The position numbers and the translations under genes are program-made. From Patescibacteria group bacterium (GTDB taxonomy: Bacteria > Patescibacteriota > Minisyncoccia > 2-02-FULL-40-12 > GWA2-44-9), in NCBI GenBank assembly GCA_038064455.1, contig JBBTTB010000005.1:21983-85982 (forward strand): a stretch of 64,000 nucleotides of DNA. Direction: 5' to 3'. The first letter of the stretch is position 1, and each line of letters starts with the position of its first letter. Under the pieces are notes generated by a model. The model was not told the DNA's origin and ran no database searches. It saw only the letters and a list, made by a program, of their open reading frames with translations. Shown here piece after piece: positions 4,503-31,039 of this stretch.

Positions 4503-4546
4503 TCTTTGCGTCTCCTAGGGCTTTCTGCTAGGGTTGGTGTGCTCTC

Positions 4547-6936: not shown

Positions 6937-8874
6937 ATGGCTCGATGGTCGTTTTTTAAGCGTCGCAACAATGCATACGCCGTCTCTCTTGATGGCGATG
7001 ATTGGGTTGCTCCAGAAGAAACGCTTGTTGACGTGGGGAGTAGCCACGTTGATCTGGAGCGCCCAGTGGATACTCGTATTTTCGCTCTCGCACGAGGTGC
7101 GGTGTGGCTTGTCGCTCTCGCACTGGTACTTGCTTCCGGGGCTCTTGCGATACAACAACATGAAACGCTCTCTGCCGCTGCTGAGTCGAATCGCACAGTA
7201 CAGATCTCCGTGAGTCCTCCTCGCGGCGCCATTGTAGATCGCACAGGAGTTCCGCTTGTGAAAAATACCCCAAGTTTTCAAATTGCTATCGTCTCTCGCG
7301 AGCTTCCAGCGACCCCTGAAGAACGTGAGGCGCTCTTCACAACAGTCGCTTCTATTCTCAAAGAAGACCCTGCGGTGCTCGTGCCGCAACTTCTTGAACG
7401 CGCACATGCGCAGAGCGTCTTTTTTGCTGCGACGGGCGTGCCAAAAGAAGCAACGGTGCAATTCTCCCAACTTTTGGGAAATGGCGTACACGTGGTAACT
7501 ACAACGGATCGCGCATATCTCAATGGCGAGCAATTTTCAACAGTGCTGGGATATACGGGACGGGTATCGGTTACCGATCGAGAGCGCGACACATCCTATG
7601 CGTCGTCTGATCGTGTTGGTCGCGCGGGGATAGAGGCCCAATATGAGCAAGAGCTCCGTGGTTCGCACGGGAGTATCACATTTTCGCGAGGAGAAGAAAG
7701 TGTCCAAAAAGATCCCATTCCGGGACACACGGTGGTGCTTGAAATAGATGCAGATGCGCAGAAGGCACTCTATAATAGTTTATTTTCAGTCTTACGGGGC
7801 GCAGCCGTTTCTGGGGCTGCTGCAATTGTGCAAGATCCACAAACGGGCGCCGTGCTAGGCATGGTGAGCTTCCCATCATATGATAACAACATATTCGCGG
7901 ATGGTATTTCACAAGGAGAATACCAGCGCTTGTTCACGTCATCGCGCAAGCCACTCTTTAATCGCGTCATCGGCGGCACCTATAACCCTGGCTCAACCAT
8001 TAAGCCATTTATTGGCATGGCAGCAGTAGAAGAGAATATTATCCGCCCATCCGACAATATTTGGGAGTGTGTAAACATCACCATTCCTAACCCGAGCAAT
8101 CCATCACGCCCGTATGTCTTTGAAAACTGGAGACCAGAGCATGGGCCGTTTAATCTTGCGCGAGCGATCGCAACGTCGTGCAATATTTACTTCTTTACTG
8201 TTGGCGGTGGACGCGATGCATTTCAAGGGCTAGGCATTGAGCGCATAGCTTCGTATCTGCAGAGGGCATTTGCTGATAAGGTGCTGGGCATTGATCTTCC
8301 GGGTGAGGTCGCTGGCTTTGTACCAACGTCGGCGTGGAAACAAGAAAAGCGTGGTGAGCCATGGTACCAAGGTGATACGTATAACGTTTCCATCGGCCAA
8401 GGAGATCTTTCCGTCTCTCCACTATGGATTAATGCGTATGTGAGCGCCATTGCAAACGGAGGGACACTCTACCAGCCACGCGTTGCACAGCGTATCCAGT
8501 ATGGCGCCGGCACTCCAGATACCGTGTTCGCACCAACCGAGCTTGCGAAGATGCCATTCAGTAGCACAACGATCGCGGCCATGCAAAAAGCAATGCGTGA
8601 GACGGTCCTCACGGGTACGGCAAAAATACTCCAAAATCTTCCCGTCTCATCTGCCGCAAAAACAGGTACGGCGGAAGTGACGAAGCATGGAAAGATCAAC
8701 TCACTCTTCACGGCGTTCGCGCCAGCAGAAAATCCAAAGGTTGCTATTACGGTGTTGGTGGAAAGCTCAATCTACAGCGAAGGATATGCAAGCCGCACGG
8801 CCCACGCATTCTTGAAATGGTTCTTTACGCGCCCATCCCCGTCATCCCCAGCGGAACCCTTGCCATCTTTGTAA
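6937..8874 (+). CDS. mrdA: penicillin-binding protein 2 (peptidoglycan D,D-transpeptidase, elongasome)
   Basis: Transpeptidase motifs STIKPF (SxxK) and KTGTAE, an N-terminal TM anchor, and a position after mreD. The start is trimmed to the ATG at 6937. Confidence 0.8.
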   Translation: MARWSFFKRRNNAYAVSLDGDDWVAPEETLVDVGSSHVDLERPVDTRIFALARGAVWLVALALVLASGALAIQQHETLSAAAESNRTVQISVSPPRGAIVDRTGVPLVKNTPSFQIAIVSRELPATPEEREALFTTVASILKEDPAVLVPQLLERAHAQSVFFAATGVPKEATVQFSQLLGNGVHVVTTTDRAYLNGEQFSTVLGYTGRVSVTDRERDTSYASSDRVGRAGIEAQYEQELRGSHGSITFSRGEESVQKDPIPGHTVVLEIDADAQKALYNSLFSVLRGAAVSGAAAIVQDPQTGAVLGMVSFPSYDNNIFADGISQGEYQRLFTSSRKPLFNRVIGGTYNPGSTIKPFIGMAAVEENIIRPSDNIWECVNITIPNPSNPSRPYVFENWRPEHGPFNLARAIATSCNIYFFTVGGGRDAFQGLGIERIASYLQRAFADKVLGIDLPGEVAGFVPTSAWKQEKRGEPWYQGDTYNVSIGQGDLSVSPLWINAYVSAIANGGTLYQPRVAQRIQYGAGTPDTVFAPTELAKMPFSSTTIAAMQKAMRETVLTGTAKILQNLPVSSAAKTGTAEVTKHGKINSLFTAFAPAENPKVAITVLVESSIYSEGYASRTAHAFLKWFFTRPSPSSPAEPLPSL

Positions 8875-15491: not shown

Positions 15492-17921
15492 GTGTCAGGT
15501 ATTTTTCTTATTGCTTACGGTGCGGTGTTTATACTCACGGCGGCTGCCGCGCTCGTATTTTTTGGCTCCCTCCGTGCGCGAGGACGTATTATGCGCGGCA
15601 TGGATATGTCGCTCTATCGCATCACGTTGCCACGTGAGGTCCAGCCAGCGCAAAAACAAGATCGCGAGCTGATCGCAGTGATGGAGCAACTCTTTGCTTC
15701 TATCACGAGTATCCACGCGCGCGGATGGAATAAGTTTATATACGGCGAGCCATACCTCGCGCTCGAGATGGCAGTGCACCACATGGGTGAAGACATTTTC
15801 TTTTATTGTGCCGTTCCTAAAAACTACGAAGCGGTATTCGTGAAGCAGGTACACGGCCTGTATCCAACTGCAGAAGTAGTGCAGTCTCCCGAATACACTA
15901 TTTTTCATCCGACGGGCGCATTTGCCGGATCATATCTCTCGCAAAAGAAAGAGGCCATTCTCCCATTCCGTACCTATGCGCGCCTTGAAAGCGATCCCCT
16001 TGGTGGCATTATTTCTGCGCTCTCAAAACTAGAAAAAGAAGGTGAGGGCGCGGCAATCCAGGTACTCATTCGTCCATCGCATCAAGAGAGCGTTCGTTCT
16101 CTCGCACAACGCGTCGCGCAGGAGATGCAGAAAGGCAATCCATTCAAAGAAGCTTTTTCACGCGCAACATCCAGCAAGAAAAAAGAACCAGAAGAATCGG
16201 CAAAACCAGCTACTGCATTTGAAGACGACGTCATTAAAGCGCTCCAGAGCAAAGCATCACGACCACTCTTTGATACCAACGTGCGCATTCTCGTGTCTGC
16301 CGAGACTCAAGATCGCGCCGACGCCATGCTGAACGACATTCAGTCGTCGTTTGTGCAGTTGGGGAGCCCAGATTTAAATGAACTGACGCCCGTTGGTTTG
16401 CGCGCTAAAGGGAAAGACAAACTTGCCTACGAATATGCATTCCGCATGTTCAACGATTCGTACACGATGCAGCTTTCCAGCGAAGAGCTTGCAAGCATCT
16501 ACCATTTTCCACTCCAACATAGTCAATCACCTCGCGTTGCGTTCTCGCATGTAAAAGCGGCAGAGCCACCCACAAATCTTCCAGAGCAAGGCATTATTCT
16601 GGGCGCGAATGTGTTCCGGGGTCAAGAACGCCCCGTGCGTATGACAGATTCAGATCGTCGTCGCCACCTCTACGTGGTAGGACAGACGGGCACTGGCAAA
16701 ACAACGCTCATGAAGCACATGATCGCGCAAGATATTCGTGCCGGGAAAGGCGTATGCATTATTGATCCCCACGGTGATTTTGCCGAATATGCGCTTTCAG
16801 TGATTCCGAAAGAACGCGTCGATGACGTTGTCTATTTCAATCCGGGAGACATTGATCGTCCGTTGGGCTTAAACATTCTTGAATTCGATCCCGCAAAGCC
16901 AGAACAAAAAACATTCCTTGCAAACGAGCTGTTGGCGATTATTAAATCGCTGTATAAATCACTTCCTGAAGCGTTCGGGCCGATGTTTGAGCAATACTTT
17001 AAGAACGCCATTTTACTCGTGATGGATGTCTACGAGCGCGCAGTGCGCGAGAAGGGTTCCAAAGAAGGATTAGAGCACCTCATTCCTACGATGGCGGACA
17101 TTCCGCGCATTCTCGTTGATGAAGACTATCGCCGCGAAAAGCTTGCGCTCGAAGATAACCCGCTCGTGAAATCATTCTGGGAACTGGAGGCAGAAAAAGC
17201 AGGTGGCGATGCGGCATTGGCCAACATGGCGCCCTACATCAACTCAAAGCTCAATCCATTTTTAGCGAATGACTATTTACGTCCCATTGTGGGGCAGAAG
17301 GTGAGCGCGTTTGATTTTCGTGCCATCATGGATGGAAAGAAGATTCTTATTGTAAATCTTTCCAAAGGCCGCATTGGCGAAATGAACGCGAACTTGTTGG
17401 GCATGATGATTGTCTCGCGCCTGCTTATGGCCGCACTTGGTCGCGTTGACCTGCCCGAAGAACAGCGAAACGATTTTTACCTCTACGTTGATGAGTTCCA
17501 AAACGTTACCACAGACAGTATTGCTACGATTCTTTCAGAAGCACGAAAATATCGCCTTGATCTCATCATCGCGCACCAGTACATCAAACAGATCCCCGAA
17601 GCAATCCGCGATGCCGTGTTTGGTAACGTCGGTTCGCAGATTGCGTTTCGCATTGGCTCCGATGACGCCGAAGCGTTGAAGAATAAATTTGAACCCGTGT
17701 TCACGCCTGCGGATCTTTCCAGCATCGACAACTTCAACGCGCATGTGCGTATGCTCATCGATGGGCAAAATGCGCGCCCTTTTTCCATTCAAACGATTCG
17801 TGAACCTGCGGGGGATCCTCGCTTAGTGAGCGCACTTGCAGAACTCTCTCGGTTGACGCATGGCCGTCCGCGTGCATTGATAGAGGAAGAATTGAAGAGC
17901 GGTTATCGAACCAATGCCTAG
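15492..17921 (+). CDS. VirD4/TraG/TrwB-like type IV coupling-protein ATPase with 2 N-terminal TM helices
   Basis: N-terminal TM pair, Walker A GQTGTGKT, Walker B LYVDEFQNV and IIAHQYIKQ, 809 aa. This architecture is that of T4SS coupling proteins. Confidence 0.55.
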   Translation: MSGIFLIAYGAVFILTAAAALVFFGSLRARGRIMRGMDMSLYRITLPREVQPAQKQDRELIAVMEQLFASITSIHARGWNKFIYGEPYLALEMAVHHMGEDIFFYCAVPKNYEAVFVKQVHGLYPTAEVVQSPEYTIFHPTGAFAGSYLSQKKEAILPFRTYARLESDPLGGIISALSKLEKEGEGAAIQVLIRPSHQESVRSLAQRVAQEMQKGNPFKEAFSRATSSKKKEPEESAKPATAFEDDVIKALQSKASRPLFDTNVRILVSAETQDRADAMLNDIQSSFVQLGSPDLNELTPVGLRAKGKDKLAYEYAFRMFNDSYTMQLSSEELASIYHFPLQHSQSPRVAFSHVKAAEPPTNLPEQGIILGANVFRGQERPVRMTDSDRRRHLYVVGQTGTGKTTLMKHMIAQDIRAGKGVCIIDPHGDFAEYALSVIPKERVDDVVYFNPGDIDRPLGLNILEFDPAKPEQKTFLANELLAIIKSLYKSLPEAFGPMFEQYFKNAILLVMDVYERAVREKGSKEGLEHLIPTMADIPRILVDEDYRREKLALEDNPLVKSFWELEAEKAGGDAALANMAPYINSKLNPFLANDYLRPIVGQKVSAFDFRAIMDGKKILIVNLSKGRIGEMNANLLGMMIVSRLLMAALGRVDLPEEQRNDFYLYVDEFQNVTTDSIATILSEARKYRLDLIIAHQYIKQIPEAIRDAVFGNVGSQIAFRIGSDDAEALKNKFEPVFTPADLSSIDNFNAHVRMLIDGQNARPFSIQTIREPAGDPRLVSALAELSRLTHGRPRALIEEELKSGYRTNA

Positions 17922-18525
17922 CTTATCTCGCCTCGACTATCTCGGCGCACTTATAACGGGTGCTACGACCGGCTGTATCGCATGGCAGATTTTTTCGTGG
18001 TTTGATATACCGCTTTATCTTGGGTTTTCATGGGCGTGGCTGGTTGTGCTCGTCCCCGTGCTTTGGCTACTCGGTGTGATCAAAGGCTACCTTTTAGGGA
18101 AATATGTTGCCCCCGTCTTCGCTGATTTTGGAAAATTTGTTGCCGTAGGTTCTACGAACGCCGCAGTCGATTTCGGCATTATGTATTTTCTCATTGCGCA
18201 GACTGGCATTGCCTCTGGCGGCTGGTTCTCTCTGTTTAAAACAGCTTCATTTATAGTTGCATTAGGCCACAGTTACACCTGGAACGCACTGTGGGTGTTT
18301 TCTAACCACGGCCGTGGTTTAAACCGCCGTGACTTTATTCGCTTTACTACCGTGGCGCTGGTTGCCCTCGCGGTGAACGTCGGCATAGCTTCATTCGTGG
18401 TGAATGGCATAGGACCTATGTTTGACCTCTCTCTGCGCGCCTGGGCCGGCGTAGGAGCTGTGGCGGGCTCTCTCCTCGCGCTCTTAGTGAGCTTCACCGG
18501 TTTTCGAAAGGTAGTCTTTGCGTGA
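17914..18525 (+). CDS. GtrA-family membrane protein (polysaccharide-synthesis associated) with extra N-terminal TM pair
   Basis: GtrA-like motifs FGKFVAVGSTNAAVDFGIMYFL and SYTWNALWVF. Its start overlaps the VirD4-like stop (ATGCCTAG). Confidence 0.5.
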   Translation: MPSLSRLDYLGALITGATTGCIAWQIFSWFDIPLYLGFSWAWLVVLVPVLWLLGVIKGYLLGKYVAPVFADFGKFVAVGSTNAAVDFGIMYFLIAQTGIASGGWFSLFKTASFIVALGHSYTWNALWVFSNHGRGLNRRDFIRFTTVALVALAVNVGIASFVVNGIGPMFDLSLRAWAGVGAVAGSLLALLVSFTGFRKVVFA

Positions 18526-18551
18526 CGCCCTCTTTCTGGTAAGGTGCCTCT

Positions 18552-19634
18552 ATGTTGTATCGCACGCATCGTCCGCATACATTCGCTGATGTCGTAGGGC
18601 AAGAGCACGTTATTCGCACCCTCAAGGGCGCGTTAACGAGCGGGCGCATTGCGCATGCCTATCTTTTTACGGGCCCTCGTGGCACGGGAAAAACAACCCT
18701 TGCTCGCATTTTTGCAAAAGCGGTGATGTGTCAGAACCGTGGCGCAAGTGGTGAGCCTGATAATGCCTGTCCGCACTGTATCGCGGTAGATAACGGATCT
18801 TCCCTTGATCTTATCGAAATCGACGGCGCCTCCCATGGGCGCGTTGATGAAATCCGTGCGCTGAAAGAATCGGCATCGGTTGCCGCTTCAAGCGCGAATA
18901 AGAAGATCTTTCTCATTGACGAAGTGCACATGGTCACGACGGGCGCGTTTAACGCTCTTTTAAAAGTGCTTGAAGAACCGCCTTCGCACGTCATGTTTCT
19001 TTTCGCGACAACGGATCCACAGAAGATCCCCGCAACGGTGCTTTCGCGTGTCCAACGCTATGATTTGCGCCGTCTCACGATTACCGAGATTTCTGACAAA
19101 CTATTGCGCATCGCGAAAGAGGAGAAAATGCCCCTCAAGCCTGATGCCGCTCACGTGATCGCCGCCGCCGCTGATGGCGCGCTTCGCGATGCAGAAGTAC
19201 TTCTCTCGAAAATGCACGGCATGAACGTTCCGGCACTCGATGTTGCCACGGTCACCGACGTGCTCGGGCTCGTACCCCATGCATTGCATCCAGAGTTTTT
19301 TGGATACCTCGTGGCGAATGATCGTGCCAACGCACTCGCATTTTTAGCACGTATCACCGAAGCGGGGATTAATCTCGATATTTTTGCTCGCGATTTTCTT
19401 GAATACGCACGCGCCGCTATGATCGCTCACGCAAACCCAGCGCTCCTTGCGGGGGTGAGTGGCGTGCATGATCACGCAACGCTTACTGCGCATGGGCAGG
19501 CCTGCACACCAGAGCATCACATTCGCATCATCATGGCATTTACCGATGCCCGCGCGCGCATGCGCACCGCATCTCTTCCACAACTTCCCCTTGAGCTCGC
19601 AGTGCTAGAGCTTATGCTCCCAGTGCAAGGGTAA
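18552..19634 (+). CDS. dnaX: DNA polymerase III subunit gamma/tau (short form)
   Basis: N-terminus MLYRTHRPHTFADVVGQEHV, Walker A GPRGTGKTT, a Zn module CxxC...C and an SRVQRYDLRRL sensor. Confidence 0.85.
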   Translation: MLYRTHRPHTFADVVGQEHVIRTLKGALTSGRIAHAYLFTGPRGTGKTTLARIFAKAVMCQNRGASGEPDNACPHCIAVDNGSSLDLIEIDGASHGRVDEIRALKESASVAASSANKKIFLIDEVHMVTTGAFNALLKVLEEPPSHVMFLFATTDPQKIPATVLSRVQRYDLRRLTITEISDKLLRIAKEEKMPLKPDAAHVIAAAADGALRDAEVLLSKMHGMNVPALDVATVTDVLGLVPHALHPEFFGYLVANDRANALAFLARITEAGINLDIFARDFLEYARAAMIAHANPALLAGVSGVHDHATLTAHGQACTPEHHIRIIMAFTDARARMRTASLPQLPLELAVLELMLPVQG

Positions 19635-19696
19635 ATAGCATCTGGTTTTTTATAAAATATGTGGTAAAGTATGCAAGCTCTTGAATAGGAGGAGTC

Positions 19697-19933
19697 ATGG
19701 AGCTTGTCGCGACGTTCCTAGGTGTAGCGCTGGCATACACCCTGATGCTCGTCTTCTCGGTTGCCGTGTTGGTGTACGGCCTCTTCTTGTGTGTCTCGGT
19801 GCTAGTATGGGATCGTGATTCACTTGGAGACATCGGCACCTCGGGGGTCATCGTTGTCGTGGGCCTGCGCCTCGCGTGGCTGATGTGGGACATCGGAGCG
19901 ATGCTCGGATCCCGTCTCCCTCCCATCTTCTAG
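19697..19933 (+). CDS. small membrane protein (2 TM), hypothetical
   Basis: AGGAGG SD 6 nt upstream, 78 aa, two hydrophobic helices, followed by a terminator. Confidence 0.4.
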   Translation: MELVATFLGVALAYTLMLVFSVAVLVYGLFLCVSVLVWDRDSLGDIGTSGVIVVVGLRLAWLMWDIGAMLGSRLPPIF

Positions 19934-19940
19934 CCACTCT

Positions 19941-19982
19941 GGCCGGACACGTATTCACTACGTGCCCGGCCTGGTTTTTTAT
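19941..19982 (+). terminator. rho-independent terminator
   Basis: GGCCGGACACG-(9 nt loop)-CGTGCCCGGCC followed by TGGTTTTTT. Confidence 0.65.
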
Positions 19983-20016
19983 TGCGAGAAGTTCTGTGGG
20001 TGCGTATACTGGAGAT

Positions 20017-21189
20017 ATGATCAATGTCATCTTGCTGGGGATCACATCACTCCTTACGGATCTTTCCAGTGAAATGATCGTCCCGATTCTCCCGTTCCTT
20101 ATTCAATCGCTTGGTGGCGGTGGATTGGCGATCGGACTCGCGTTTGGTGTAGGCGATGCCGTTGCGGCACTCATGAAGGTGTTTTCTGGATACTGGGCAG
20201 ACCGCACAAAGCGTTTTAAAACGTTTGTATTCGTCGGCTATTTCTTTTCTGCGTTTGCAAAGTTTTTCTACCCCTTCATTTCGAGCTGGCAAAGCATCGC
20301 CATTCTCCGTCCCATTGAACGCCTTGGCAAAGGGTTTCGTGACGCACCACGCGACGCCATCGTTTCAGAGTCGGTTCCTCCAAACATGCGTGGCAAAGCA
20401 TTCGGCGTCCAGCGTGCGATGGATAGCGTCGGCGCGCTCATTGGTTCCGTGGCGGTGCTGGTGCTATTTCTCATCTTTGGACTTTCTCTCCAAACGCTCT
20501 TTTTCTTTGCCGCACTGATTGGCATTGTCGCGGTGATTCCTATTTTCTTTGTGCGCGTGCCAAGCAACCTCACGCTCTCGCGCAAGCGCATTGGATTTCG
20601 CGAACTTCCTATAAAGGCGCGTTACTTCATCGCCATCGCAACCGTATTTGCCATTGCGAACTTTAGCAACGCGTTTTTCATTCTGCGTGCGCAGGGTTTA
20701 TTTACTGACCTTTCATTCCAAGATTCGCTTTCGTTGGCGTTGGTGCTCTACATCTTCTTTGGTATTTTTGACGCCGTATTTTCCGAACCTGCAGGCGCTC
20801 TCTCTGACCAGCTTGGCCGCCGCCGCATTATTCTCACGGGCTATTTGTTGTTTAGCGTCGTGTCGCTTGGGTTTATGGCCGTGCCGTATATTGCACACAC
20901 AACCGTTTCGCAATTTTTAGTGATGCTTGTGTTCTTTGCGCTCTATGGTGTCTTCCGTGCATTCATTGATGCATCACAGCGTGCTATGGTCGCTGATCTT
21001 TCGGATCCAGGGCAACGCGCAACAGCACTAGGAACCTTTGAAGCCGCAACGGGACTTGCTGCTATTCCTGCTGGTCTCATCGCTGGATTCCTGTGGGATT
21101 TCTCTCCTGCGCTCACCTTCGCACATGGGTTTGGCTTTAGTCTTCTCGCCAGCGCGCTCTTACTCGTGTTTATCCGCGACCAGAAATAG
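20017..21189 (+). CDS. MFS transporter
   Basis: 12 predicted TM helices with an MFS loop 2-3 motif GYWADRTKRFK. Start trimmed to the ATG at 20017, which has a GGAG SD. Confidence 0.7.
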   Translation: MINVILLGITSLLTDLSSEMIVPILPFLIQSLGGGGLAIGLAFGVGDAVAALMKVFSGYWADRTKRFKTFVFVGYFFSAFAKFFYPFISSWQSIAILRPIERLGKGFRDAPRDAIVSESVPPNMRGKAFGVQRAMDSVGALIGSVAVLVLFLIFGLSLQTLFFFAALIGIVAVIPIFFVRVPSNLTLSRKRIGFRELPIKARYFIAIATVFAIANFSNAFFILRAQGLFTDLSFQDSLSLALVLYIFFGIFDAVFSEPAGALSDQLGRRRIILTGYLLFSVVSLGFMAVPYIAHTTVSQFLVMLVFFALYGVFRAFIDASQRAMVADLSDPGQRATALGTFEAATGLAAIPAGLIAGFLWDFSPALTFAHGFGFSLLASALLLVFIRDQK

Positions 21190-21805: not shown

Positions 21806-21879
21806 TGCGGGGTCGTCTAATGGTAGGACAGCGGCCTTTGAAGCCGTGAATCTTGGTTCGAGTCCAGGCCCCGCAGCCA
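21806..21879 (+). tRNA. tRNA-Gln (anticodon UUG)
   Basis: Manually folded cloverleaf. Acceptor TGCGGGG/CCCCGCA with U1:A72 and G73 as in bacterial tRNA-Gln, D-arm GTCT/GGAC, anticodon stem GCGGC/GCCGT with loop CTTTGAA, T-arm CTTGG-TTCGAGT-CCAGG and an encoded CCA. Confidence 0.8.
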
Positions 21880-22037
21880 AGTCGAGATAGGCTTTCGTGC
21901 CAGAAGGGCGGATATCCTCTCGCGCACCCCACGCCTATGTCTAAGTTTGAAAATACATAAATGTCGGAGTATAGTTGACGAGTAGTAATCACTGTCGAGA
22001 CTTCTAAATTTATAATAGCTGCAATTAAAACAGACAT

Positions 22038-22436
22038 ATGTCAAAAGAAGGACTTCCCACAGGGGTAGATACGAGTGTAGAGAAGGGGCCTGATTCTATA
22101 GTAGAAAATGACAACCAAGAACGGTTCGCTTCCTTGGTAGCGAACCCAGTTTTTGCTAAGTTAGAAATAGCAGCCGCTGAATCTAACCCAGTGGTCTTAG
22201 GTGCAGCAGTGCGACAACTGTTTAAAGATATGAGTCTCGATGATCTGCGGCAGGCGATCGAGTTTTCAAAATCGGTAGTTTTGACTTTACGAGATTTAGC
22301 TAATACACCGGAGCAAATTAAGAGAAACAGGAGTGCTCCAGTCACTCGCCTCGATCATGCCATTCATAAGCTTGATAACTACGAAAGAGTAAGACGAAGT
22401 CTTAGTGGCATGATTGAACCCCCAAAGAATCCTTAA
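22038..22436 (+). CDS. hypothetical protein
   Basis: 132 aa, first gene after the tRNA, with an AT-rich upstream region. Confidence 0.4.
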   Translation: MSKEGLPTGVDTSVEKGPDSIVENDNQERFASLVANPVFAKLEIAAAESNPVVLGAAVRQLFKDMSLDDLRQAIEFSKSVVLTLRDLANTPEQIKRNRSAPVTRLDHAIHKLDNYERVRRSLSGMIEPPKNP

Positions 22437-22458
22437 GTCGTGATGATACAAAATACAC

Positions 22459-22677
22459 ATGATTAAAACTTTACCCGTGTGGGCAAAAATAGCTTGGTGG
22501 GCGAGTGTAGTTGTTATACTTGGCCTCGCGATCATAACAGTGGATACGTTAGCGGGGATTAACTCCGGAAGGTACGACTCAATGGCCTTTCTGGTTTTCA
22601 ACTATTTAGTTATCCCAGTTGGAGGACTTTTAGTGTTGGTTTGGGCCATTGTTTTCGTTGTCCGACGAAAGAAATAA
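22459..22677 (+). CDS. small membrane protein (2 TM)
   Basis: 72 aa with two hydrophobic helices and a basic C-terminus. Confidence 0.35.
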   Translation: MIKTLPVWAKIAWWASVVVILGLAIITVDTLAGINSGRYDSMAFLVFNYLVIPVGGLLVLVWAIVFVVRRKK

Positions 22678-22710
22678 AATGAGAAATAAGGCGTATACTA
22701 CAGCCACTCA

Positions 22711-23337
22711 ATGGCTAATCAAATCACCCATGTTGCTTTAGCAGAAAAGAAGTATGACTCACTTTTCTCAAAATTTGGGAAAGAAGATTTTTTTATTGGC
22801 ACAGTATTCCCCGATATTAGATACCTGGGCGTCATAGACCGAGAAAGAACCCATAATACAAACTTTTTACTACCAGCTATACTCGATGGTGAAAACACTG
22901 CATTTCAAGCAGGAGTAAAGTATCACTGCCTCGTTGATGCAGTTCGGGAAAAGTTTATTATCGAACAGGGCCTCTACGCTTTAGTGCCACAATCAAAGTA
23001 TATTACTCAAGCGATAAAGTGCCTGGAAGATGAAATCTACTATCCCAAAGTGTCGGACTGGGCAGTATATGTTGCGATGCTCCACAAGACATTGCCGGAA
23101 GAAACTGCCTACGGGGTAGCATCCGATGATATTGCGCGTTGGCATAATCTTTTAGCGGACTATTTTCGTAAAACTCCAGACGATATAAGTCGCGAGGGCT
23201 TGATGATGAGTATTGGATTTCCAAAAACTGTAGCAGATGAGATCAATACCTTGGTTCGCCAGATGCGGGAGAGTGGGCCAGTTGTGGGTATCATCGCGCA
23301 GTTTTGGAACAACTTTGATGCGCTTCTCAATGAATAA
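22711..23337 (+). CDS. hypothetical protein (His/aromatic-rich N-terminal motifs)
   Basis: 208 aa with THVALAE...GTVFPDIRY...H motifs. Its stop overlaps the next start (ATGAATAA). Confidence 0.45.
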   Translation: MANQITHVALAEKKYDSLFSKFGKEDFFIGTVFPDIRYLGVIDRERTHNTNFLLPAILDGENTAFQAGVKYHCLVDAVREKFIIEQGLYALVPQSKYITQAIKCLEDEIYYPKVSDWAVYVAMLHKTLPEETAYGVASDDIARWHNLLADYFRKTPDDISREGLMMSIGFPKTVADEINTLVRQMRESGPVVGIIAQFWNNFDALLNE

Positions 23338-23881
23338 TCTTGAAAAAATACGCGGCCTCTCTTGGCCAGATGTTGTAGACACTTGGCGTTCAACTGAAGA
23401 AAACCTAGAGCACTGGCAGAAGTTTTGGTCGGCGAAGGGCTTTTCATCGTGGCAGGCGTGGCGAGAGAAAACCCACGCCAACCTGCGAGGTCCCGAACTC
23501 TCCTGGGCGCTATACAAAGTATCAGACTCGCTCAATCAGGTGCCACAATGGCGAGGCGGAATGTTTCACTCGTGGGCTAAGTGGTTCTATCCGATGCTTG
23601 CCGAACAGCCGCCACGATTGAGAGATTTACTTGAACATCCAGGAGTGCATAATCACTGGTTCATCCGAGACATTGCCAAAACATTCCCTGCGGCCACGAC
23701 GATTATGGCGATACGAACCTCAAATGGAGATATTGTAATTGTTGAGGGGATGCACCGCTGTTGCGCATTAGCACTTCTTGCGCGCGATAAGAAATCTGTG
23801 GCTACCGAGCTGAATATTGTCCTTGCCGACTGGCCGTTTGGTGATATGCCGCGCCTAGGGAGCGGCTGGGAGAAACCATGA
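23330..23881 (+). CDS. ParB/Srx-fold (ParB-like nuclease domain) protein, Trp-rich N-terminus
   Basis: C-terminal IVIVEGMHRCCALALLA resembles the (D/E)GxHR core of ParB N-domain/sulfiredoxin nucleases. It is translationally coupled on both sides. Confidence 0.4.
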   Translation: MNNLEKIRGLSWPDVVDTWRSTEENLEHWQKFWSAKGFSSWQAWREKTHANLRGPELSWALYKVSDSLNQVPQWRGGMFHSWAKWFYPMLAEQPPRLRDLLEHPGVHNHWFIRDIAKTFPAATTIMAIRTSNGDIVIVEGMHRCCALALLARDKKSVATELNIVLADWPFGDMPRLGSGWEKP

Positions 23882-24333
23882 AAAACCTCCCAATACTCTT
23901 TCTGAAAGCAGTCATCGTGCTCATCGGCATCGGTGCGCTGGCTTTTCTCCTTATAGAACCCCACTTTGAAGGCAGGAATGTAAATGCCACGCTCTTTCAG
24001 ATTTACTTTAACGATCCATTCTTAGTATATGCATACATTGCATCTATTCCATTCTTTGTGGCGCTTCATCGGGCATTCAAGGTGCTGGGGCACGTAAGGC
24101 GTGGCAACACATTCTCTCAAGCGACTCTGCGTGCGATGCGAACGATCAAACACTGTGCAGTAGCCATCATAGCTTTTGTTATTCCCGGGATCATCTTTAT
24201 TCGGTTTTTTAGTGGCAGTGATGACTCCGCCGGCGGAGTTGCCATGGGTGCCTTCGTTATCTTAGGCTCGCTTATCGCCGTAGCCACCACAACAACGATT
24301 GAGCATATTCTGCAGGATGCCGGTGGGCGCTAG
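23878..24333 (+). CDS. DUF2975-like 4-TM membrane protein
   Basis: 151 aa with a four-helix topology and conserved-looking loop motifs. The start overlaps the previous stop (ATGA). Confidence 0.35.
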   Translation: MKNLPILFLKAVIVLIGIGALAFLLIEPHFEGRNVNATLFQIYFNDPFLVYAYIASIPFFVALHRAFKVLGHVRRGNTFSQATLRAMRTIKHCAVAIIAFVIPGIIFIRFFSGSDDSAGGVAMGAFVILGSLIAVATTTTIEHILQDAGGR

Positions 24334-24371
24334 TCGTTTGTGTTTCAGAGAGCTGGGCGTATACTGATGAC

Positions 24372-25031
24372 ATGATAGATACAGTTCCGCCGATTCCACC
24401 GCTGATACCGTCTCAAGCACCGTCCGACTCGGGTGGATCCAAGTACAAGCCCGTGTGGTCGTGGTTGGTTGGCATTTTGATCCCGATAGTCTTTTTTGCT
24501 TCGTGGATTGGCTTTTCTCGTCCCGGCTCACCCTTCGGAAATGGACTTACGGCGGCATACCTAGGGGCACTCACTGATATATTATTAGTATCGGCGCTAT
24601 GGCCGATGCTTATTGCGGTAAAAGTCGGTATTCCCTACATGGTTGTTGAGGCCGCCGGCTTCGGTTTGCCGTCACCGCTTGGGTTGCTCTTGAGCGGATT
24701 TGTCTGGATGCTTATCGGGAGGGGGTTATATGTGCTCTACCATTCGCGTCTTAAGATTATTTTTTGGCCCCTTATTCTTGCCGCAATTGGTGCGCTAGGA
24801 ATTGGCGCATATATCGGAACTGGAGATTTTCGTACGATAGAAAAGGCGAAAGAAACGAAAAATGTTTCATACTGCAATAGGTTTGAAGGCGAAGCGAAGG
24901 GGTATTGTCTGATTGATGTTGCGGTTGCCGCCAATGACCCGAGCATATGTGAAAACATACCCGGGTTTCAGCGTACCGCATGTTTTCGTAGTTTAGATGC
25001 GCCATACACACCCTTGCCGGGCATGAAGTAA
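24372..25031 (+). CDS. polytopic membrane protein with Cys-containing C-terminal tail, hypothetical
   Basis: 219 aa with about 5 TM helices and a C-terminus carrying C..C...C..C. Confidence 0.4.
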   Translation: MIDTVPPIPPLIPSQAPSDSGGSKYKPVWSWLVGILIPIVFFASWIGFSRPGSPFGNGLTAAYLGALTDILLVSALWPMLIAVKVGIPYMVVEAAGFGLPSPLGLLLSGFVWMLIGRGLYVLYHSRLKIIFWPLILAAIGALGIGAYIGTGDFRTIEKAKETKNVSYCNRFEGEAKGYCLIDVAVAANDPSICENIPGFQRTACFRSLDAPYTPLPGMK

Positions 25032-25134
25032 GACAATGTGAGTAACGCGATATTTTTACTAGAGCTAAAAATTCAACTTACCTCTCGGTCACTATGCACT
25101 CTTTGGTAGCTCTCTTTTAGATGGAGAGGATCAG

Positions 25135-26715
25135 TTAATTCAGTTCGGCTGAACGGCGATCCTCATATCGCGTAATGCGACGACCTAAGAGAGCGGTTGT
25201 GCGACGTTCAAGTGCATTGGTAATAGCATCGTATCGCTCGTCATCCTTTTTTCCTTGAGCGGCCTGCGCGAGCTCAAGAAGCGCTTTTGCGTGCATGCGA
25301 GCCCAGCGGGCCTGCTGCTCCTGGTTCTCGTAATCAAGGCCTTTGTCGAGTTCCGCTTCCGACACTCCGGCTTCTTCTCGAGCCTTTCGGTCATGGTGCT
25401 TCCACGCTTCCAGAATTTCAGTTGTCCAGTACAGTTCTCGAGATTCGTTATCGGCATAACTATCGTATGCGTTGGCGGCACGACTGATCATGCCTCGATA
25501 GCTTAACCCTCGGCGAAGCGCGTCGCGGTGATCGGTAAATACATAGAGGTCGTCGATCCACGTTTTTTCCTCCATGTCTTCGTACTCAGGAGTACCCGAT
25601 GGTGGCAATTTCGTTTCCCGCACCTTGTCTGGAATAGGACGATCGGGGCGTTCTGGTTGGGCTGGTTTTTGGTCTTCTCCTTTTCTCCGACGTGGCAACA
25701 ACAAAGGAATGAAAAGAAGGAGAGGTACTGGTATGATCAGCGTTTCGCTCTTATCTCCTTCATAGCTTACGGTGATTTTTACCCCTCGTTTTGAGCTCAG
25801 AATTTCATCAAGGCGCCCTTTGTGTTCCAGTGGTTCATTGTTGTTATATTTACGAATGAGGTTAAATATCTTCTCAAGAGAATCAACGCCATTCTCATCC
25901 TTTGCAAGTTCTGCAAGCTCTGCCTGTTCGGATTCACTAAACTGAAGCTCTTCACCTTGCACCTGCATGGCGGCCGCTTCGAGTTGATCGGCGCTGATTC
26001 CTTTGCGGGCGAACCCTTCTCTCATCGCCTCAAGCGCATGAGAAGCGCGAAGCTCTCCGAGCGCGATATTTTCCTGATCAATGGCCTCTTGCTCTAACGT
26101 ATTCGCGCCTTTGTGTTCCGGACCCTCCGGTGAAGCCAGACCGGTTACGGCGATGCGGGTAATGCGTACATCCTGCAGTCCAGGTTGCTCGTGATGGAGC
26201 CCGTAGACTTCTTTACTCCGTGCGAATCCATAAAGCACGTCCGCGAGCTGTTTCTCCACCTCTTGATCCACGTATTGTACAAGACGTTCTTGCCCTTCAG
26301 GATCAACCGATGTTGCCGTGTCAAAGCCGCGACTGTATTCATAAGGCAAGTGAGCTGTGCGCTCCATTTCCTCTTTTATGTCTCGAGAGACTTCAATTTG
26401 GAAGGGGGCGATGAGTGACCATGGATTAAATCGAGTTTCACCCTTGTCGTCTTTGTAAAAAAATGCCAAATGACCGTCCGGCCACTTTGCTTCCCACCCT
26501 TGTTCCGCTACTGTTGTTTCGAGTTCTGCCTTATGAGTCTTTGCTTCGACGCTTCCAGCACCGCCAAGACCGGCAAACAGAGCGAGATAGGTGATTCCAG
26601 CCTGTTCGCGCATGCGTTGCGACCATAGCTTTAATCGCCTCGATTCTTGAGGCTCTTGTGTCTCAGCGGCCTCAACGTGACTAACCGGTTCATGTGAGAG
26701 AGGTGTTTTTTCCAT
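25135..26715 (-). CDS. hypothetical protein (526 aa, acidic, central TM segment)
   Basis: Long clean ORF on the minus strand with a central LIIPVPLLLFIPLLLPRRRK hydrophobic segment. No recognisable catalytic motif. Confidence 0.5.
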   Translation of the reverse strand: MEKTPLSHEPVSHVEAAETQEPQESRRLKLWSQRMREQAGITYLALFAGLGGAGSVEAKTHKAELETTVAEQGWEAKWPDGHLAFFYKDDKGETRFNPWSLIAPFQIEVSRDIKEEMERTAHLPYEYSRGFDTATSVDPEGQERLVQYVDQEVEKQLADVLYGFARSKEVYGLHHEQPGLQDVRITRIAVTGLASPEGPEHKGANTLEQEAIDQENIALGELRASHALEAMREGFARKGISADQLEAAAMQVQGEELQFSESEQAELAELAKDENGVDSLEKIFNLIRKYNNNEPLEHKGRLDEILSSKRGVKITVSYEGDKSETLIIPVPLLLFIPLLLPRRRKGEDQKPAQPERPDRPIPDKVRETKLPPSGTPEYEDMEEKTWIDDLYVFTDHRDALRRGLSYRGMISRAANAYDSYADNESRELYWTTEILEAWKHHDRKAREEAGVSEAELDKGLDYENQEQQARWARMHAKALLELAQAAQGKKDDERYDAITNALERRTTALLGRRITRYEDRRSAELN

Positions 26716-26803
26716 AACGAAAAGTATACACCTTTTTCCATGATAAAAGGAGTATTCTGTACTTAATAGTGCGGCCTACATCAAGACGCTCCCGTAGGGG
26801 ATA

Positions 26804-26832
26804 TTGACCCTTCCGATTTATTATTGTATCCT
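26804..26832 (+). promoter_or_regulatory. sigma70-like promoter upstream of the Cys-rich micro-ORF
   Basis: TTGACC at 26804..26809, a 17-nt spacer and TATCCT/TATATA. Confidence 0.35.
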
Positions 26833-26882
26833 ATATATCGATCTTTCCCCCGTACCTTTCTGGGGAGGAGGTGAGGAAGAAA

Positions 26883-26984
26883 ATGGCGCGCGACTGTTCG
26901 CACAGTGGCAAGTGCGGTACCAAGAACCACACCGGCAACAGCAGCCACGGCTGGTGCAAGTACTGCAAGAAGTGCAACAGCTGA
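26883..26984 (+). CDS. 33-aa cysteine/histidine-rich peptide MARDCSHSGKCGTKNHTGNSSHGWCKYCKKCNS
   Basis: ATG at 26883 with a GGAGGAGGTGAGG SD 5-12 nt upstream and a TGA stop at 26982. A perfect terminator follows 15 nt later. The ORF is absent from the supplied ORF track, which lists only ORFs of 60 aa or longer. Confidence 0.45.
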   Translation: MARDCSHSGKCGTKNHTGNSSHGWCKYCKKCNS

Positions 26985-26998
26985 CGGCAAGGTCGTGA

Positions 26999-27034
26999 CA
27001 TGGGGGAGGCTCGCATAGCTCCCCCATGTTTTTT
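26999..27034 (+). terminator. rho-independent terminator
   Basis: CATGGGGGAG-gctcgcata-GCTCCCCCATG followed by TTTTTT. Confidence 0.7.
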
Positions 27035-27047
27035 ACAAGGAGGCACA

Positions 27048-27277
27048 AAGTGGCTCAAGTGGGCAAGCCGTTTCACGAGCTGACGGAAAGCGAGGCGAAG
27101 AAGATCGTCAAAGCGATCGTGAGATCGTCGCACTCGGAGGAGGAAATCCGCCGGCGCCTGACGGAGGCGGGCTTCAGCGGAGCGAGTGCGCTCATCGCTG
27201 CAGACAGCTGCTGCAATGGGTTCCAGGTGATGGTTCGCTCCCCACGTGGGAAGACCATCAGCATCTCGGCTCACTAA
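27048..27277 (+). CDS. small hypothetical protein (GTG start)
   Basis: AAGGAGG SD 7 nt upstream of the GTG. About 76 aa (VAQVGKPFHELTESEAKKIVKAIV...). Confidence 0.4.
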
Positions 27278-27287
27278 GGAGGACGTC

Positions 27288-27437
27288 ATGAGCGTTCGAG
27301 AACAAGCAGAAGAAGTCGTCGAGACGCTCGACGACGCGACGTTCTTCACCGCGCTTCAGGCGGAGTGCGAAGAAACGCTCTTCCTCCTGAGGACCCGAGG
27401 ACCGAGGGGTGGAACACGCTCATGCGTGCACGCATGA
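27288..27437 (+). CDS. small acidic hypothetical protein
   Basis: TAAGGAGG SD upstream of the ATG. 49 aa (MSVREQAEEVVETLDDATFF...). Confidence 0.3.
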   Translation: MSVREQAEEVVETLDDATFFTALQAECEETLFLLRTRGPRGGTRSCVHA

Positions 27438-27547
27438 GCACTCTGCATCAGCTCACTGGAGCAGCCCTCGGCAAGAACAAGAAGTAGCACAACCTCGGTC
27501 TCAACGACGCACGGCGGCTAGCGATAGCCGCCTTTCTCTTTGCAAAA

Positions 27548-27578
27548 GCCTAGCATTCCCATGTGTGAGCGCGTAGAA
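27548..27578 (+). repeat. 31-bp promoter-like box, copy A (GCCTAGCATTCCCATGTGTGAGCGCGTAGAA)
   Basis: Near-identical to copy B at 28384..28414, 29 of 31 matching. It sits just after a terminator-like hairpin. Confidence 0.6.
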
Positions 27579-27598
27579 CGAGAGTACGCATCCGATAC

Positions 27599-27628
27599 TT
27601 GACACTGCTACTATCTTCTCTGTATAAT
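27599..27628 (+). promoter_or_regulatory. consensus sigma70 promoter (TTGACA-18-TATAAT)
   Basis: TTGACA at 27599..27604 and TATAAT at 27623..27628, about 115 bp upstream of the ATG at 27743. Confidence 0.5.
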
Positions 27629-27742
27629 ATTGTTGTTAGTGCGCACCTTACAATAAACCGAAACCGATATACCGCCGCACACTGCGGCCCCGGCCTTTCA
27701 GGCGCGGGAAGAATACCGACTTTCAGCCGGAAGGAGAACGTC

Positions 27743-28312
27743 ATGTCCAAATACGGACACCTGCCCCACAACTACTTCGAATACATCATGAATCGTCTCG
27801 GTGGCGAAGAGGGAGCCGAAGCGTTCAAGCGCGGGGATGTGATCCTGGCCCCGAACTCCCAGAAGCTTCTGCGATTGGTGGTGAGGGCGACCCCGCTCCC
27901 CGTCATCAAGGAACTCGTGGTCAAGGACATGTTCACCAGCAAGAACTCCTCGCGCGAATTCCGGAACGCGTTTTTCAACGTTGTGGAGCGAAACATCCCA
28001 GCGTCGCAGGTTCACATCATGACGCTGTTGGAGGAGGCGGATGGCCTGTCCATCGCAACCATGCTGGGAGTTCGGAGATCTGTGGTGTGGCTGTCCCACT
28101 TCGTCGACATTCTCCAGAACGACCTTCTCTTCTTCCTCACCAAGCGCGTCATGGCGTTCATCATGGACGCGAGCGGCGTGGACGTGCAGATCGTGGAGGC
28201 TTGCCGGCTGCACGGTGAGTGGTACTACGACGTCGTCTCGCTGGGCAACATGAACGTGCGGCAGAAAGGCTCCTATTTCGTGGTTTCGTCACCCGAGAGC
28301 CCGAGCGCCTAG
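27743..28312 (+). CDS. hypothetical protein (189 aa, GC-rich)
   Basis: GGAAGGAGA SD upstream of the ATG at 27743. The listed ORF start at 27599 lies inside the promoter. Confidence 0.5.
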   Translation: MSKYGHLPHNYFEYIMNRLGGEEGAEAFKRGDVILAPNSQKLLRLVVRATPLPVIKELVVKDMFTSKNSSREFRNAFFNVVERNIPASQVHIMTLLEEADGLSIATMLGVRRSVVWLSHFVDILQNDLLFFLTKRVMAFIMDASGVDVQIVEACRLHGEWYYDVVSLGNMNVRQKGSYFVVSSPESPSA

Positions 28313-28383
28313 CCGCACCGAGCTCGTCAGCCCCCAGTCCCGCTGTGGTTTCCTTCACGGACCATGGCGGGGCTTTTTGTTTT

Positions 28384-28414
28384 GCCTAGCATTCTCATGT
28401 GCGAGCGCGTAGAA
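28384..28414 (+). repeat. 31-bp promoter-like box, copy B (GCCTAGCATTCTCATGTGCGAGCGCGTAGAA)
   Basis: Second copy. It ends 12 nt before the ATG at 28427, which would give a near-leaderless mRNA if the TAGAAT acts as a -10. Confidence 0.6.
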
Positions 28415-28426
28415 TAGAGCCTATCT

Positions 28427-28774
28427 ATGTCACACGAAAAACCAATAATACCACAGCCGCCGGAGCGCGTAGAGCAAGAACCAACGCTCGCAGAGTGTCT
28501 ACTCAATGCCTTGCGCACCGAAGGACTTGTCGGAGAGCATACCCAGCAGTACATTCAAGAGTGGTGGACTGCGCGTGAAGCCCTTTCTGATGAGGGTCGT
28601 TGGGAGGCAGATCTGATTCGTGCGGGGATATTTCTTACCGCTGGGTTCATTTCTGAAGCACTTGAGGAATTTGAATCTATAGCACAGCAAGCCTACGAAG
28701 CACAGAAAGACGACATCGTTGACCGTTGCGATCAATGCATCGAGGCGATCCGCAAAGCTATCCCGAACGAATAG
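28427..28774 (+). CDS. hypothetical acidic protein (115 aa)
   Basis: Clean ORF directly after box B. A terminator follows at 28783..28810 (AGCCCCTCACGGGGCTTTTTGTT). Confidence 0.5.
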   Translation: MSHEKPIIPQPPERVEQEPTLAECLLNALRTEGLVGEHTQQYIQEWWTAREALSDEGRWEADLIRAGIFLTAGFISEALEEFESIAQQAYEAQKDDIVDRCDQCIEAIRKAIPNE

Positions 28775-28865
28775 CTACAGCCCTAAGCCCCTCACGGGGC
28801 TTTTTGTTGCTTTTCTCTAGTGCTTTTGAGAATATGAGGAATGAACAAGCCTCTTTGCTATTAGT

Positions 28866-29069
28866 ATGAGGCGAATCGTTTATATTTTAAAAATGAGTAA
28901 AACAGAGTTAAAACAACACGCCGAACAGATCGAAGTAAACCTAAAAGCATACCTGGAATTACTTGCAGAGTTAGAACATGAGAGAAAAAAGATTATTGAC
29001 GAATTCTCAGAAACTCTAAGATTGAGAAAAATCAAAGAGTTAAAAAGATCTTTATCTACTAATGGATAA
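28866..29069 (+). CDS. small hypothetical coiled-coil protein (alt start 28893)
   Basis: AT-rich ORF of 67 aa, Lys/Glu-rich. Confidence 0.3.
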   Translation: MRRIVYILKMSKTELKQHAEQIEVNLKAYLELLAELEHERKKIIDEFSETLRLRKIKELKRSLSTNG

Positions 29070-30009
29070 TCAAGAAGTAGTTCCCGCAATAAAGCCCCTG
29101 GAAGTTTCGGAACAACAATCCTTAAAAACTAAGGAAGAACTTGAGGTTTCTGATGAAAAACAGCTAGAGTTGCTTAAAGACCGAGTTCTTGGGGTTATCA
29201 GAAGCAAGGCGCAGGGAGTAAAAAAGACCATCACTGGTTCACTTGATCGTGTATTCAAGTCCTTTAATTTGTTCCGTGGGTCTATCGGGGATCGAGAAGA
29301 AAATGATTTTGATGCCGAATTCTCCTTGAATTCTGAAGAAATTGACCAATTGGCGGGGTATTTTGAAGAACAAGTCAAGGATATCACCCCGGGCTTGATT
29401 GGCTTAGGGGCTGAGAAAAAAATCTACCAACATCCCTTGCACCCAGATAGAGTAATCGGTGAGTATAACGAGGATCATCCTGATTCAGTTCGTAAAGCTA
29501 AGGCCCGTTTTTATTTTTATAAAATATTAAACACTCTTCTCCTCGATTATTTTCCAAGAATGATACTGGCGGCAGAGAAAAGGTTTGAAGCATCACGATT
29601 GGATGGGGACCCTTATAAAAAACTTCGCGACCGTCTTAGGCAAAATAGGGGTCATCTCAACCCCACCCAAATAGATCGGGTATTAGAAAAACTACATGTA
29701 ATGGAGGAGGGTTTTCGCAGAACTAGCCGGTTTAAGAAATTTCAGAATGATCTATGGTCTCTCGGTATAGCGGCGGATGCAAATAGGGTAAACTTTTTTG
29801 ATGCCACTGATGGGTTAAAATATGTGGATACTATCGATCCGTGGTTGAATAGATATAGTGACGGTGCTCTTGTACCTAATTTTAACCCAGAGCAACTCTT
29901 GCAGATAATTGAGAGCCTCCCTGATGAGCAAAGAGCGAGAACCAGAGTCTACTATGAGAGACTGGTCGGTTTGTTGACGGAAGAGAGAGAGATTACTATG
30001 CCGGCATAG
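29062..30009 (+). CDS. hypothetical protein (315 aa, low GC)
   Basis: Long ORF with no recognisable motif. It overlaps the preceding ORF by 8 nt. Confidence 0.5.
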   Translation: MDNQEVVPAIKPLEVSEQQSLKTKEELEVSDEKQLELLKDRVLGVIRSKAQGVKKTITGSLDRVFKSFNLFRGSIGDREENDFDAEFSLNSEEIDQLAGYFEEQVKDITPGLIGLGAEKKIYQHPLHPDRVIGEYNEDHPDSVRKAKARFYFYKILNTLLLDYFPRMILAAEKRFEASRLDGDPYKKLRDRLRQNRGHLNPTQIDRVLEKLHVMEEGFRRTSRFKKFQNDLWSLGIAADANRVNFFDATDGLKYVDTIDPWLNRYSDGALVPNFNPEQLLQIIESLPDEQRARTRVYYERLVGLLTEEREITMPA

Positions 30010-30613: not shown

Positions 30614-31039
30614 ATGAAGCTGAAACGGCTCACCCTCACTGATATAGAGTACGTCGCACATAGACTTGCACAAGAAACGATGTCGTGGCGTGAACCTATC
30701 CCTGACTTCGGCACACGATACTCAAACGCGCTTGAGCGGTGCATTGATGCGCCGTTCCAATCCTTTGGTGGTAAGCAGTTATATCCCGGCCTTGTGAGGA
30801 AGGCTTCGATACTATTTTATTTGATGATCAAAAATCATCCGTTTCAGAACGGAAATAAAAGATTAGCGATGACGACGCTCTTCTTTTTTCTCTTTCGGAA
30901 TAAGAAGTGGATGAAAGTTGATACACAAGAACTGTATAATTTTGCAGTCTGGGTTGCGAAAAGCAATGCGAAGGTGAGGGCCGACACCATACGAGCGGTA
31001 GAAACATTTCTCGGTAGCTATATAGTTGATATAGAATAA
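30614..31039 (+). CDS. Doc (death-on-curing)/Fic-fold toxin family protein
   Basis: HPFQNGNKRLAMT matches the Doc variant of the Fic motif (HxFx[DN]GNKR). 141 aa. Confidence 0.6.
   Translation: MKLKRLTLTDIEYVAHRLAQETMSWREPIPDFGTRYSNALERCIDAPFQSFGGKQLYPGLVRKASILFYLMIKNHPFQNGNKRLAMTTLFFFLFRNKKWMKVDTQELYNFAVWVAKSNAKVRADTIRAVETFLGSYIVDIE

Follow-up and report, generated by a model that had tools for sequence, protein, structure and literature searches.

In the ParB/Srx fold, a GxxR P-motif (Box II) binds NTP phosphates (PMC12704722; PMC4619093). The closest described proteins include the ParB-CTPase proteins ParB, KorB, Noc and PadC, which belong to the Pfam family PF02195 (ParBc), the model with which a recent survey of the ParB-CTPase fold was searched (PMC12704722). 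Sulfiredoxins (Srx; PDB 6ky4, 1xw3 and 1yzs) carry the signature F-(G/S)-G-C-H-R with its catalytic cysteine, and the free serine kinases SerK and SbnI (PDB 5x0b and 5ujd) are larger, two-domain proteins of 240-254 aa. The ParB/Srx domains of DUF262/GmrS, DndB, BrxU and SspE are associated with defence; they have DGQQR or DGQHR motifs and come with HNH/DUF1524 nucleases or dnd/ssp genes, whether by fusion or by pairing, in defence islands. Two other kinds of protein bear on the locus described here: DUF2975 proteins (PF11188), which are often paired with a small HTH regulator and for which a literature search found no functional study, and the Zn-dependent phospholipases C and alpha-toxins (Zn-PLC; PF00882; PDB 1ah7, 1olp and 8cqm).

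Here we analyse three overlapping genes, A, B and C, in a 64-kb stretch of DNA (the window) taken from a metagenome-assembled genome of the Patescibacteria (candidate phyla radiation, CPR). An earlier, sequence-only reading had put the trio forward as a new defence or toxin module. Such a module would have mattered, but the evidence points to an accident of gene packing. We consider it probable that A, B and C are accessory genes with independent evolutionary histories that came to lie side by side by happenstance in a variable region downstream of a tRNA-Gln gene, and do not form a conserved functional unit.

Gene layout and overlaps

In the list of open reading frames (ORFs), all three genes lie on the forward strand: A at 22711-23337 (208 aa), B at 23330-23881 (183 aa) and C at 23878-24333 (151 aa). 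Both junctions are as first described, with an 8-nt overlap between A and B (ATGAATAA, 23330-23337) and a 4-nt overlap between B and C (ATGA, 23878-23881). The longest possible ORF for B starts at 23237 and the 183-aa version at 23330; we place the start at 23330 because that is where an identical database protein (P0001) begins, as do 17 homologues of 181-200 aa. The NCBI record identical to B is named 'MAG: hypothetical protein AAB463_00950 [Patescibacteria group bacterium]'.

The choice of these three genes is arbitrary: they belong to a longer run of six tightly spaced, co-directional ORFs that spans 22038-25031. This run opens with a 132-aa ORF without a family match (22038-22436, forward strand) and a 72-aa small hydrophobic protein whose only matches, to C-terminal anchor motifs, are below threshold (22459-22677, forward strand), and it closes with a 219-aa membrane ORF from the ORF list (24372-25031, forward strand). 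A promoter and terminator scan found no terminator-like site between the genes of the run and no promoter match above shuffled expectation; the best sigma-70-like match of the region lies at 21947-21975, just upstream of the 132-aa ORF. A, B and C probably share transcripts with their neighbours.

The overlaps had been taken to imply coupled expression and a fixed stoichiometry, an argument undercut by how routine such junctions are. In a crude gene call of the window, overlaps of 1, 4 or 8 nt occur at 7 of 72 same-strand junctions and gaps of at most 20 nt at a further 20; one unrelated pair, a HerA/TraG-like ATPase gene (15492-17921) and GtrA (17914-18525), overlaps by 8 nt. Elsewhere, B homologues overlap or abut whichever gene is upstream: LigA by 4 nt (L006), a 79-aa ORF (L002 and L003) or a NUDIX gene by 8 nt (L065), and the homologue at L004 starts on the final base of the YchF stop codon. 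The A/B and B/C overlaps are no more than chance gives in the source genome, and would reflect the close gene packing that is usual in this compact Patescibacteria genome.

The ATPase encoded at 15492-17921 is an 809-aa protein with DUF87, TrwB_AAD_bind and TraG-D_C matches and a PADLOC match to mad8 (E 1.4e-17); it could be a protein of the conjugation or DNA-translocation type in a Patescibacteria chromosome.

A protein family with a predicted ParB/Srx-like fold

A word-indexed search returned 18 relatives of B of about 183 aa, and an exhaustive HMM search extended the family to 323 clusters at 50% identity (E <=1e-3), almost all of 175-200 aa and matched end to end. The cluster names of 10 diverse members were all 'hypothetical protein' or absent. 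Three longer members (P0099, P0150 and P0208; 265-410 aa) have a C-terminal CoA_binding_2, acylphosphatase or alpha/beta-hydrolase domain; we did not use these fusion partners to assign function because they vary from protein to protein and could reflect merged gene calls.

One-genome-per-species contigs were scanned with a 17-member alignment, as the 40-member alignment was too diverse, and the family was found at 49 loci, most of them in Patescibacteria (Parcubacteria, Yanofsky-, Moran-, Uhr-, Falkow-, Magasanik- and Andersenbacteria, Saccharibacteria and Microgenomates). A few B-bearing bins lie elsewhere, namely in Acidobacteriota, Dormibacterota, Methanosarcinaceae (an archaeon), Gammaproteobacteria and Micavibrio (L018, L019, L024, L026 and L045) and in Elulimicrobium, with the Acidobacteriota gene on a 4.5-Mb contig. 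Unless horizontal transfer or binning errors account for these outliers, the family is not strictly limited to Patescibacteria. The viral contigs scanned held no relatives.

B contains the EGMHRC motif (residues 139-144, codons at 23744-23761 on the forward strand), in which G140-x-x-R143 takes the position of the GxxR P-motif; E139, G140, M141, H142, R143 and C145 are invariant in the close family. B is also rich in tryptophan, with 13 Trp among its 183 residues (7.1%). Across 40 diverse members, W29, R45, W59 and G140 are invariant, and W19, E23, W41, W44, G77, W82, H142 and R143 are at least 90% conserved. The sequence-only reading had seen an unusual Trp-rich N-terminus fused to the motif-bearing domain; the conservation of these N-terminal two-thirds throughout the family shows instead that the Trp-rich region is integral to B, and there is no fusion.

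In the predicted structure, B has a core alpha/beta fold that superposes on Srx or on the ParB N-terminal domain. The suggestion that EGMHRC fits the (D/E)GxHR loop of this fold is borne out by the model, in which G140-M-H-R143 sits where expected, at the strand-to-helix junction between strand 135-139 and helix 141-152. Judged by the order of secondary-structure elements, the core would comprise strand 4-10, helix 12-24, strands 122-129 and 135-139, helix 141-152 and strand 160-167, and residues ~25-120 would form a Trp-rich helical insertion of ~95 residues. We consider it probable that the B family is a stand-alone, ~180-aa version of the predicted ParB/Srx-like fold with a Trp-rich insertion.

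This similarity is one of fold, and profile searches tell a sparser story. The Pfam searches suggested earlier matched C to DUF2975 and gave no ParBc match for B, with nothing to PF02195 at E up to 1, so that the family would have been missed by the PF02195-based survey (PMC12704722). When 40 members were run against Pfam, a single DndB match (E 0.0016) and a single GmrSD_N match (E 0.14) were the only ones; NCBIfam returned nothing for B, and PDB sequence-profile searches with the 17- and 40-member alignments gave chance matches only. B might instead lack the ParB/Srx fold altogether, the likeness coming from a small beta-hairpin-helix motif with a chance GxHR in a family of different, new fold and function; we consider this unlikely.

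Within the fold, B differs from each of the described groups. It is not a sulfiredoxin: where that group has its catalytic Cys, B has Met (V-E-G-M-H-R against F-(G/S)-G-C-H-R), and the position varies among relatives (M, T, S, H, L or Q). Its own Cys residues come after the Arg and are not conserved family-wide, it has the ~95-residue Trp-rich insertion, identity to Srx is 12-16% and there is no peroxiredoxin context. Nor is B a canonical ParB, because it is a single 183-aa domain in which the HTH and the C-terminal dimerization domain are missing, with no ParA; Pfam found no HTH family in B, and no ParA was present among 101 neighbours of B homologues. In contrast to the ParB-CTPase proteins, B also lacks a parS context and lies off mobile elements in most genomes. 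Compared with the two-domain SerK and SbnI, B is single-domain, and no cysteine or siderophore biosynthesis genes were found beside its homologues. Finally, B is not a recognizable DUF262/DndB-type defence domain. No family emerged consistently when 40 members were scanned against Pfam and PADLOC, and B is stand-alone, has HR and not QR, and has neither the nuclease or dnd/ssp partners nor a PADLOC system.

By analogy with Srx, SerK/SbnI and ParB, the likeliest mechanism for B would be NTP binding, with the NTP phosphates held by the (D/E)GxHR loop where helix 141-152 begins. B would then act in housekeeping or in a nucleotide-related process, as a nucleotide-dependent enzyme or switch, and the Trp-rich insertion may be its substrate or partner site.

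Genomic neighbourhoods of B homologues

A Pfam scan of 101 immediate neighbours from ~52 non-redundant loci found a variable and mostly housekeeping neighbourhood: NUDIX (7 of 101), NYN (4), YchF (3), MetK (2) and otherwise single housekeeping genes, with neither DUF2975 nor PLC among the recurrent families. Contexts vary from one lineage to the next and include an unknown gene and Peptidase_C39 (L001); LigA upstream and GatC-GatA downstream (L002, L003 and L006); YchF upstream and NYN, S6, SSB and S18 downstream (L004, L014 and L016); ManC (L064); and NUDIX/NYN (L065). The sequence-only reading had suggested a test for co-occurrence with defence islands; B homologues lie mostly among these housekeeping genes, and no relative was found on viral contigs.

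The commonest of these neighbours raises the idea that B works with a NUDIX hydrolase, an NYN RNase or both in nucleotide or RNA housekeeping, and that the copy in the window has been displaced from its partner. NUDIX genes neighbour B at L012, L021, L040, L047 and L065 (and L046), several of them (L012, L040 and L065) overlapping B or within 7 nt of it; NYN genes, the next most frequent, do so at L004 and L065, and a NUDIX link would fit an NTP-binding fold. However, ~85% of loci have no NUDIX neighbour, and no NUDIX or NYN gene lies near B in the window. The NUDIX neighbours look heterogeneous and do not share one NCBIfam equivalog, these genomes carry many NUDIX genes and the 7 of 101 is a raw count, which is why we treat this loose association as a lead only. 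As an account of B it is rather improbable.

Genes A and C

Gene A (22711-23337) encodes a predicted all-helical protein that distantly resembles Zn-dependent phospholipase C. Its score against PF00882 is 16.1 bits, below the gathering cut-off of 26.8 (E 0.011), and covers the N-terminal 73 residues only; generic helical matches score equally. A is shorter than the Zn-PLC and alpha-toxin proteins, lacks their C-terminal PLAT domain and, unlike its own distant relatives, has no signal peptide. It is a candidate cytoplasmic, distant Zn-phospholipase-C/P1-nuclease-like metallohydrolase. Its homologues occur in three independent contexts, beside DUF218, GrpB or Bac_transf. The closest homologue, 77% identical, follows a GrpB gene (L066, 1619-2240; L067, 1090-1711) and appears as two tblastn pieces (residues 1-148 and 151-207) and as a truncated 161-aa gene call, which suggests a gene disrupted by an internal stop or frameshift, or an assembly error.

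Gene C (23878-24333) is a DUF2975 membrane protein, as had been supposed from its sequence: residues 43-148 match PF11188 at 70.3 bits against a cut-off of 27 (E 1.9e-19), and the NCBI name of an identical protein is 'DUF2975 domain-containing protein'. Three clear hydrophobic spans and one weaker one, both computed and judged by eye, fit four transmembrane segments. C has 3,989 homologues, many of them ~60% identical and from other phyla. In three contexts, these homologues lie beside GrpB/Fic or beside a GTPase and an unknown gene; L060 has the familiar pair of DUF2975 and HTH_26. Unlike HTH-paired DUF2975 genes, C has no HTH gene beside it, either in the window or in its closest relatives.

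The variable region beside tRNA-Gln

A tRNA-Gln gene (anticodon TTG; 21806-21879, forward strand) was identified with ARAGORN and is the sole Rfam match in the whole window (tRNA, 61.3 bits). The trio had been placed next to this tRNA; the tRNA is indeed upstream, but not immediately adjacent, because 832 nt and two small ORFs intervene between it and A.

We compared the window by blastn with L061 (CP129474.1), the 615-kb Paceibacterota genome of a close relative. The flank at 18142-21189 is 83% identical in nucleotides and 94-95% in amino acids, GtrA, DnaX and MFS showing these same values, and the tRNA-Gln genes are 96% identical. Beyond the tRNA, homology is lost. The tRNA forms the left edge of a strain-variable, accessory region (21880-28417), and synteny with L061 is regained at 28418. 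Inside this region only the DUF2975 gene (72% nucleotide identity) and two fragments of 151 and 62 nt (26883-27033, 92% identical, and 27515-27576) match L061. The DUF2975 match begins at 23876, 2 nt ahead of the ATG of C; the two proteins are 71% identical, and C is the sole trio gene common to both genomes at this site. A and B are absent from the corresponding region of L061, which has a GrpB gene instead. Because L061 keeps tRNA-Gln and the DUF2975 gene without A and B, the comparison indicates that A and B are accessory insertions into the variable region, beside an older resident C. Their GC content is also unlike (42.6% for A and 51.4% for B). The window contains no integrase, and since no second copy of the tRNA-Gln 3' end (the mark of an attR) was found in it, it shows no integrated island with recognizable ends.

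The L061 site (3967-4985) has repeats of its own. The tRNA-Gln 3' end is duplicated 233 bp downstream of the tRNA (4271-4302, 94% identical to 21860-21891 of the window), and the GrpB gene (4331-4855) lies between 30-nt direct repeats (GAAGGCGACACGAGTGAGATTCCAGGCCCC; 4254-4285 and 4955-4984) that include the duplicated tRNA-end sequence. The arrangement resembles a hotspot at tRNA-Gln that has taken up cassettes one after another; no integrase was seen there. In the window, 31-nt direct repeats (27548-27578 and 28384-28414; 94% identical, 836 nt apart) bracket a 237-aa ORF (27599-28312) and may mark a further cassette boundary within the variable region; L061 has a conserved counterpart (7103-7164) of the short stretch that contains the first copy.

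Five consecutive ORFs at 25135-30009 (526, 172, 237, 115 and 315 aa) were without matches in Pfam and PADLOC; the largest, on the minus strand, encodes a highly charged 526-aa protein with one hydrophobic segment. At 30614-31039 is a 141-aa Fic/DOC-domain protein that matches the PADLOC candidate system PDC-S23 (E 1.4e-18). In L061, a different Fic gene (5614-6021) directly follows the DUF2975 gene.

Conservation of the trio and links to defence

Homologues of A or C were found within 4 kb of a B homologue at none of ~57 B-carrying loci. When A, C and four further proteins from the flanks of the trio in the window were searched by tblastn against all B-carrying loci, none matched, and the A-B pair had no counterpart elsewhere in the surveyed contexts of B, A and C. 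The trio does not behave as a conserved operon, in which the same genes would be adjacent in several lineages. The sequence-only reading had named two outcomes that would speak against a module: lack of conservation of the trio, which is what we found at these loci, and a B protein without a ParB/Srx fold, which the predicted model does not bear out.

Against PADLOC-DB 2.0, A and C had no matches, and no defence system was found for the trio. B had one weak match, to PD-Lambda-5_A (E 0.0023), over 39 residues around the GxHR motif. PD-Lambda-5_A is a methyltransferase-containing component of a compact RM+Abi system (PMC9519451); the matched region is its ParB-like N-terminal part, and only 1 of 40 B-family members gave the match. 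Window neighbours of the trio gave generic Fic and HerA-type matches only. The proposal of a new defence or toxin module does not survive these results, with the trio not conserved as a unit, L061 carrying C only and PADLOC finding nothing significant.

A narrower version, in which A-B-C is a lineage-specific, translationally coupled defence or toxin cassette of abortive-infection-like type acquired at a tRNA-Gln hotspot, with B as a ParB-like nuclease or NTPase, A as a phospholipase- or nuclease-like effector and C as a membrane effector or anchor, can point to the position of the trio inside the variable region, the cassette-like insertions flanked by tRNA 3'-end repeats in the sister genome, tight packing with no terminator-like site between the genes, the likeness of A to PLC toxins and the PD-Lambda-5_A match, but is very improbable given that no two trio genes co-occur across the ~57 B loci, three independent A contexts and three C contexts, that B relatives keep housekeeping and not viral company, that the sister genome has C without A and B, that A and B differ in GC content, that PADLOC finds no system and that the window has neither an integrase nor a second att copy.

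Discussion

Our preferred reading, that A, B and C are independent accessory genes brought together by happenstance, makes the trio an ordinary accessory gene cluster that includes one uncharacterized ParB/Srx-like family of modest interest. The locus is a clear example of how 4- and 8-nt start/stop overlaps in compact Patescibacteria genomes are not a sign of functional coupling.

The B family, mostly from Patescibacteria, is invisible to current Pfam-based surveys of the ParB-CTPase fold. We tentatively propose that B represents a previously undescribed, Patescibacteria-enriched family (~320 clusters at 50% identity, modelled in neither Pfam nor NCBIfam and missed by PF02195 surveys) in which a ParB/Srx NTP-binding fold with a Trp-rich insertion may serve as a stand-alone nucleotide-dependent enzyme or switch in core physiology, possibly with NUDIX or NYN enzymes. 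Should the family bind a nucleotide, the fold, whose functional range is being actively studied, would gain a stand-alone branch that is neither a DNA clamp nor mobile; and if the proposal as a whole is true, the ParB-CTPase fold would extend to a new housekeeping role in ultra-small bacteria.
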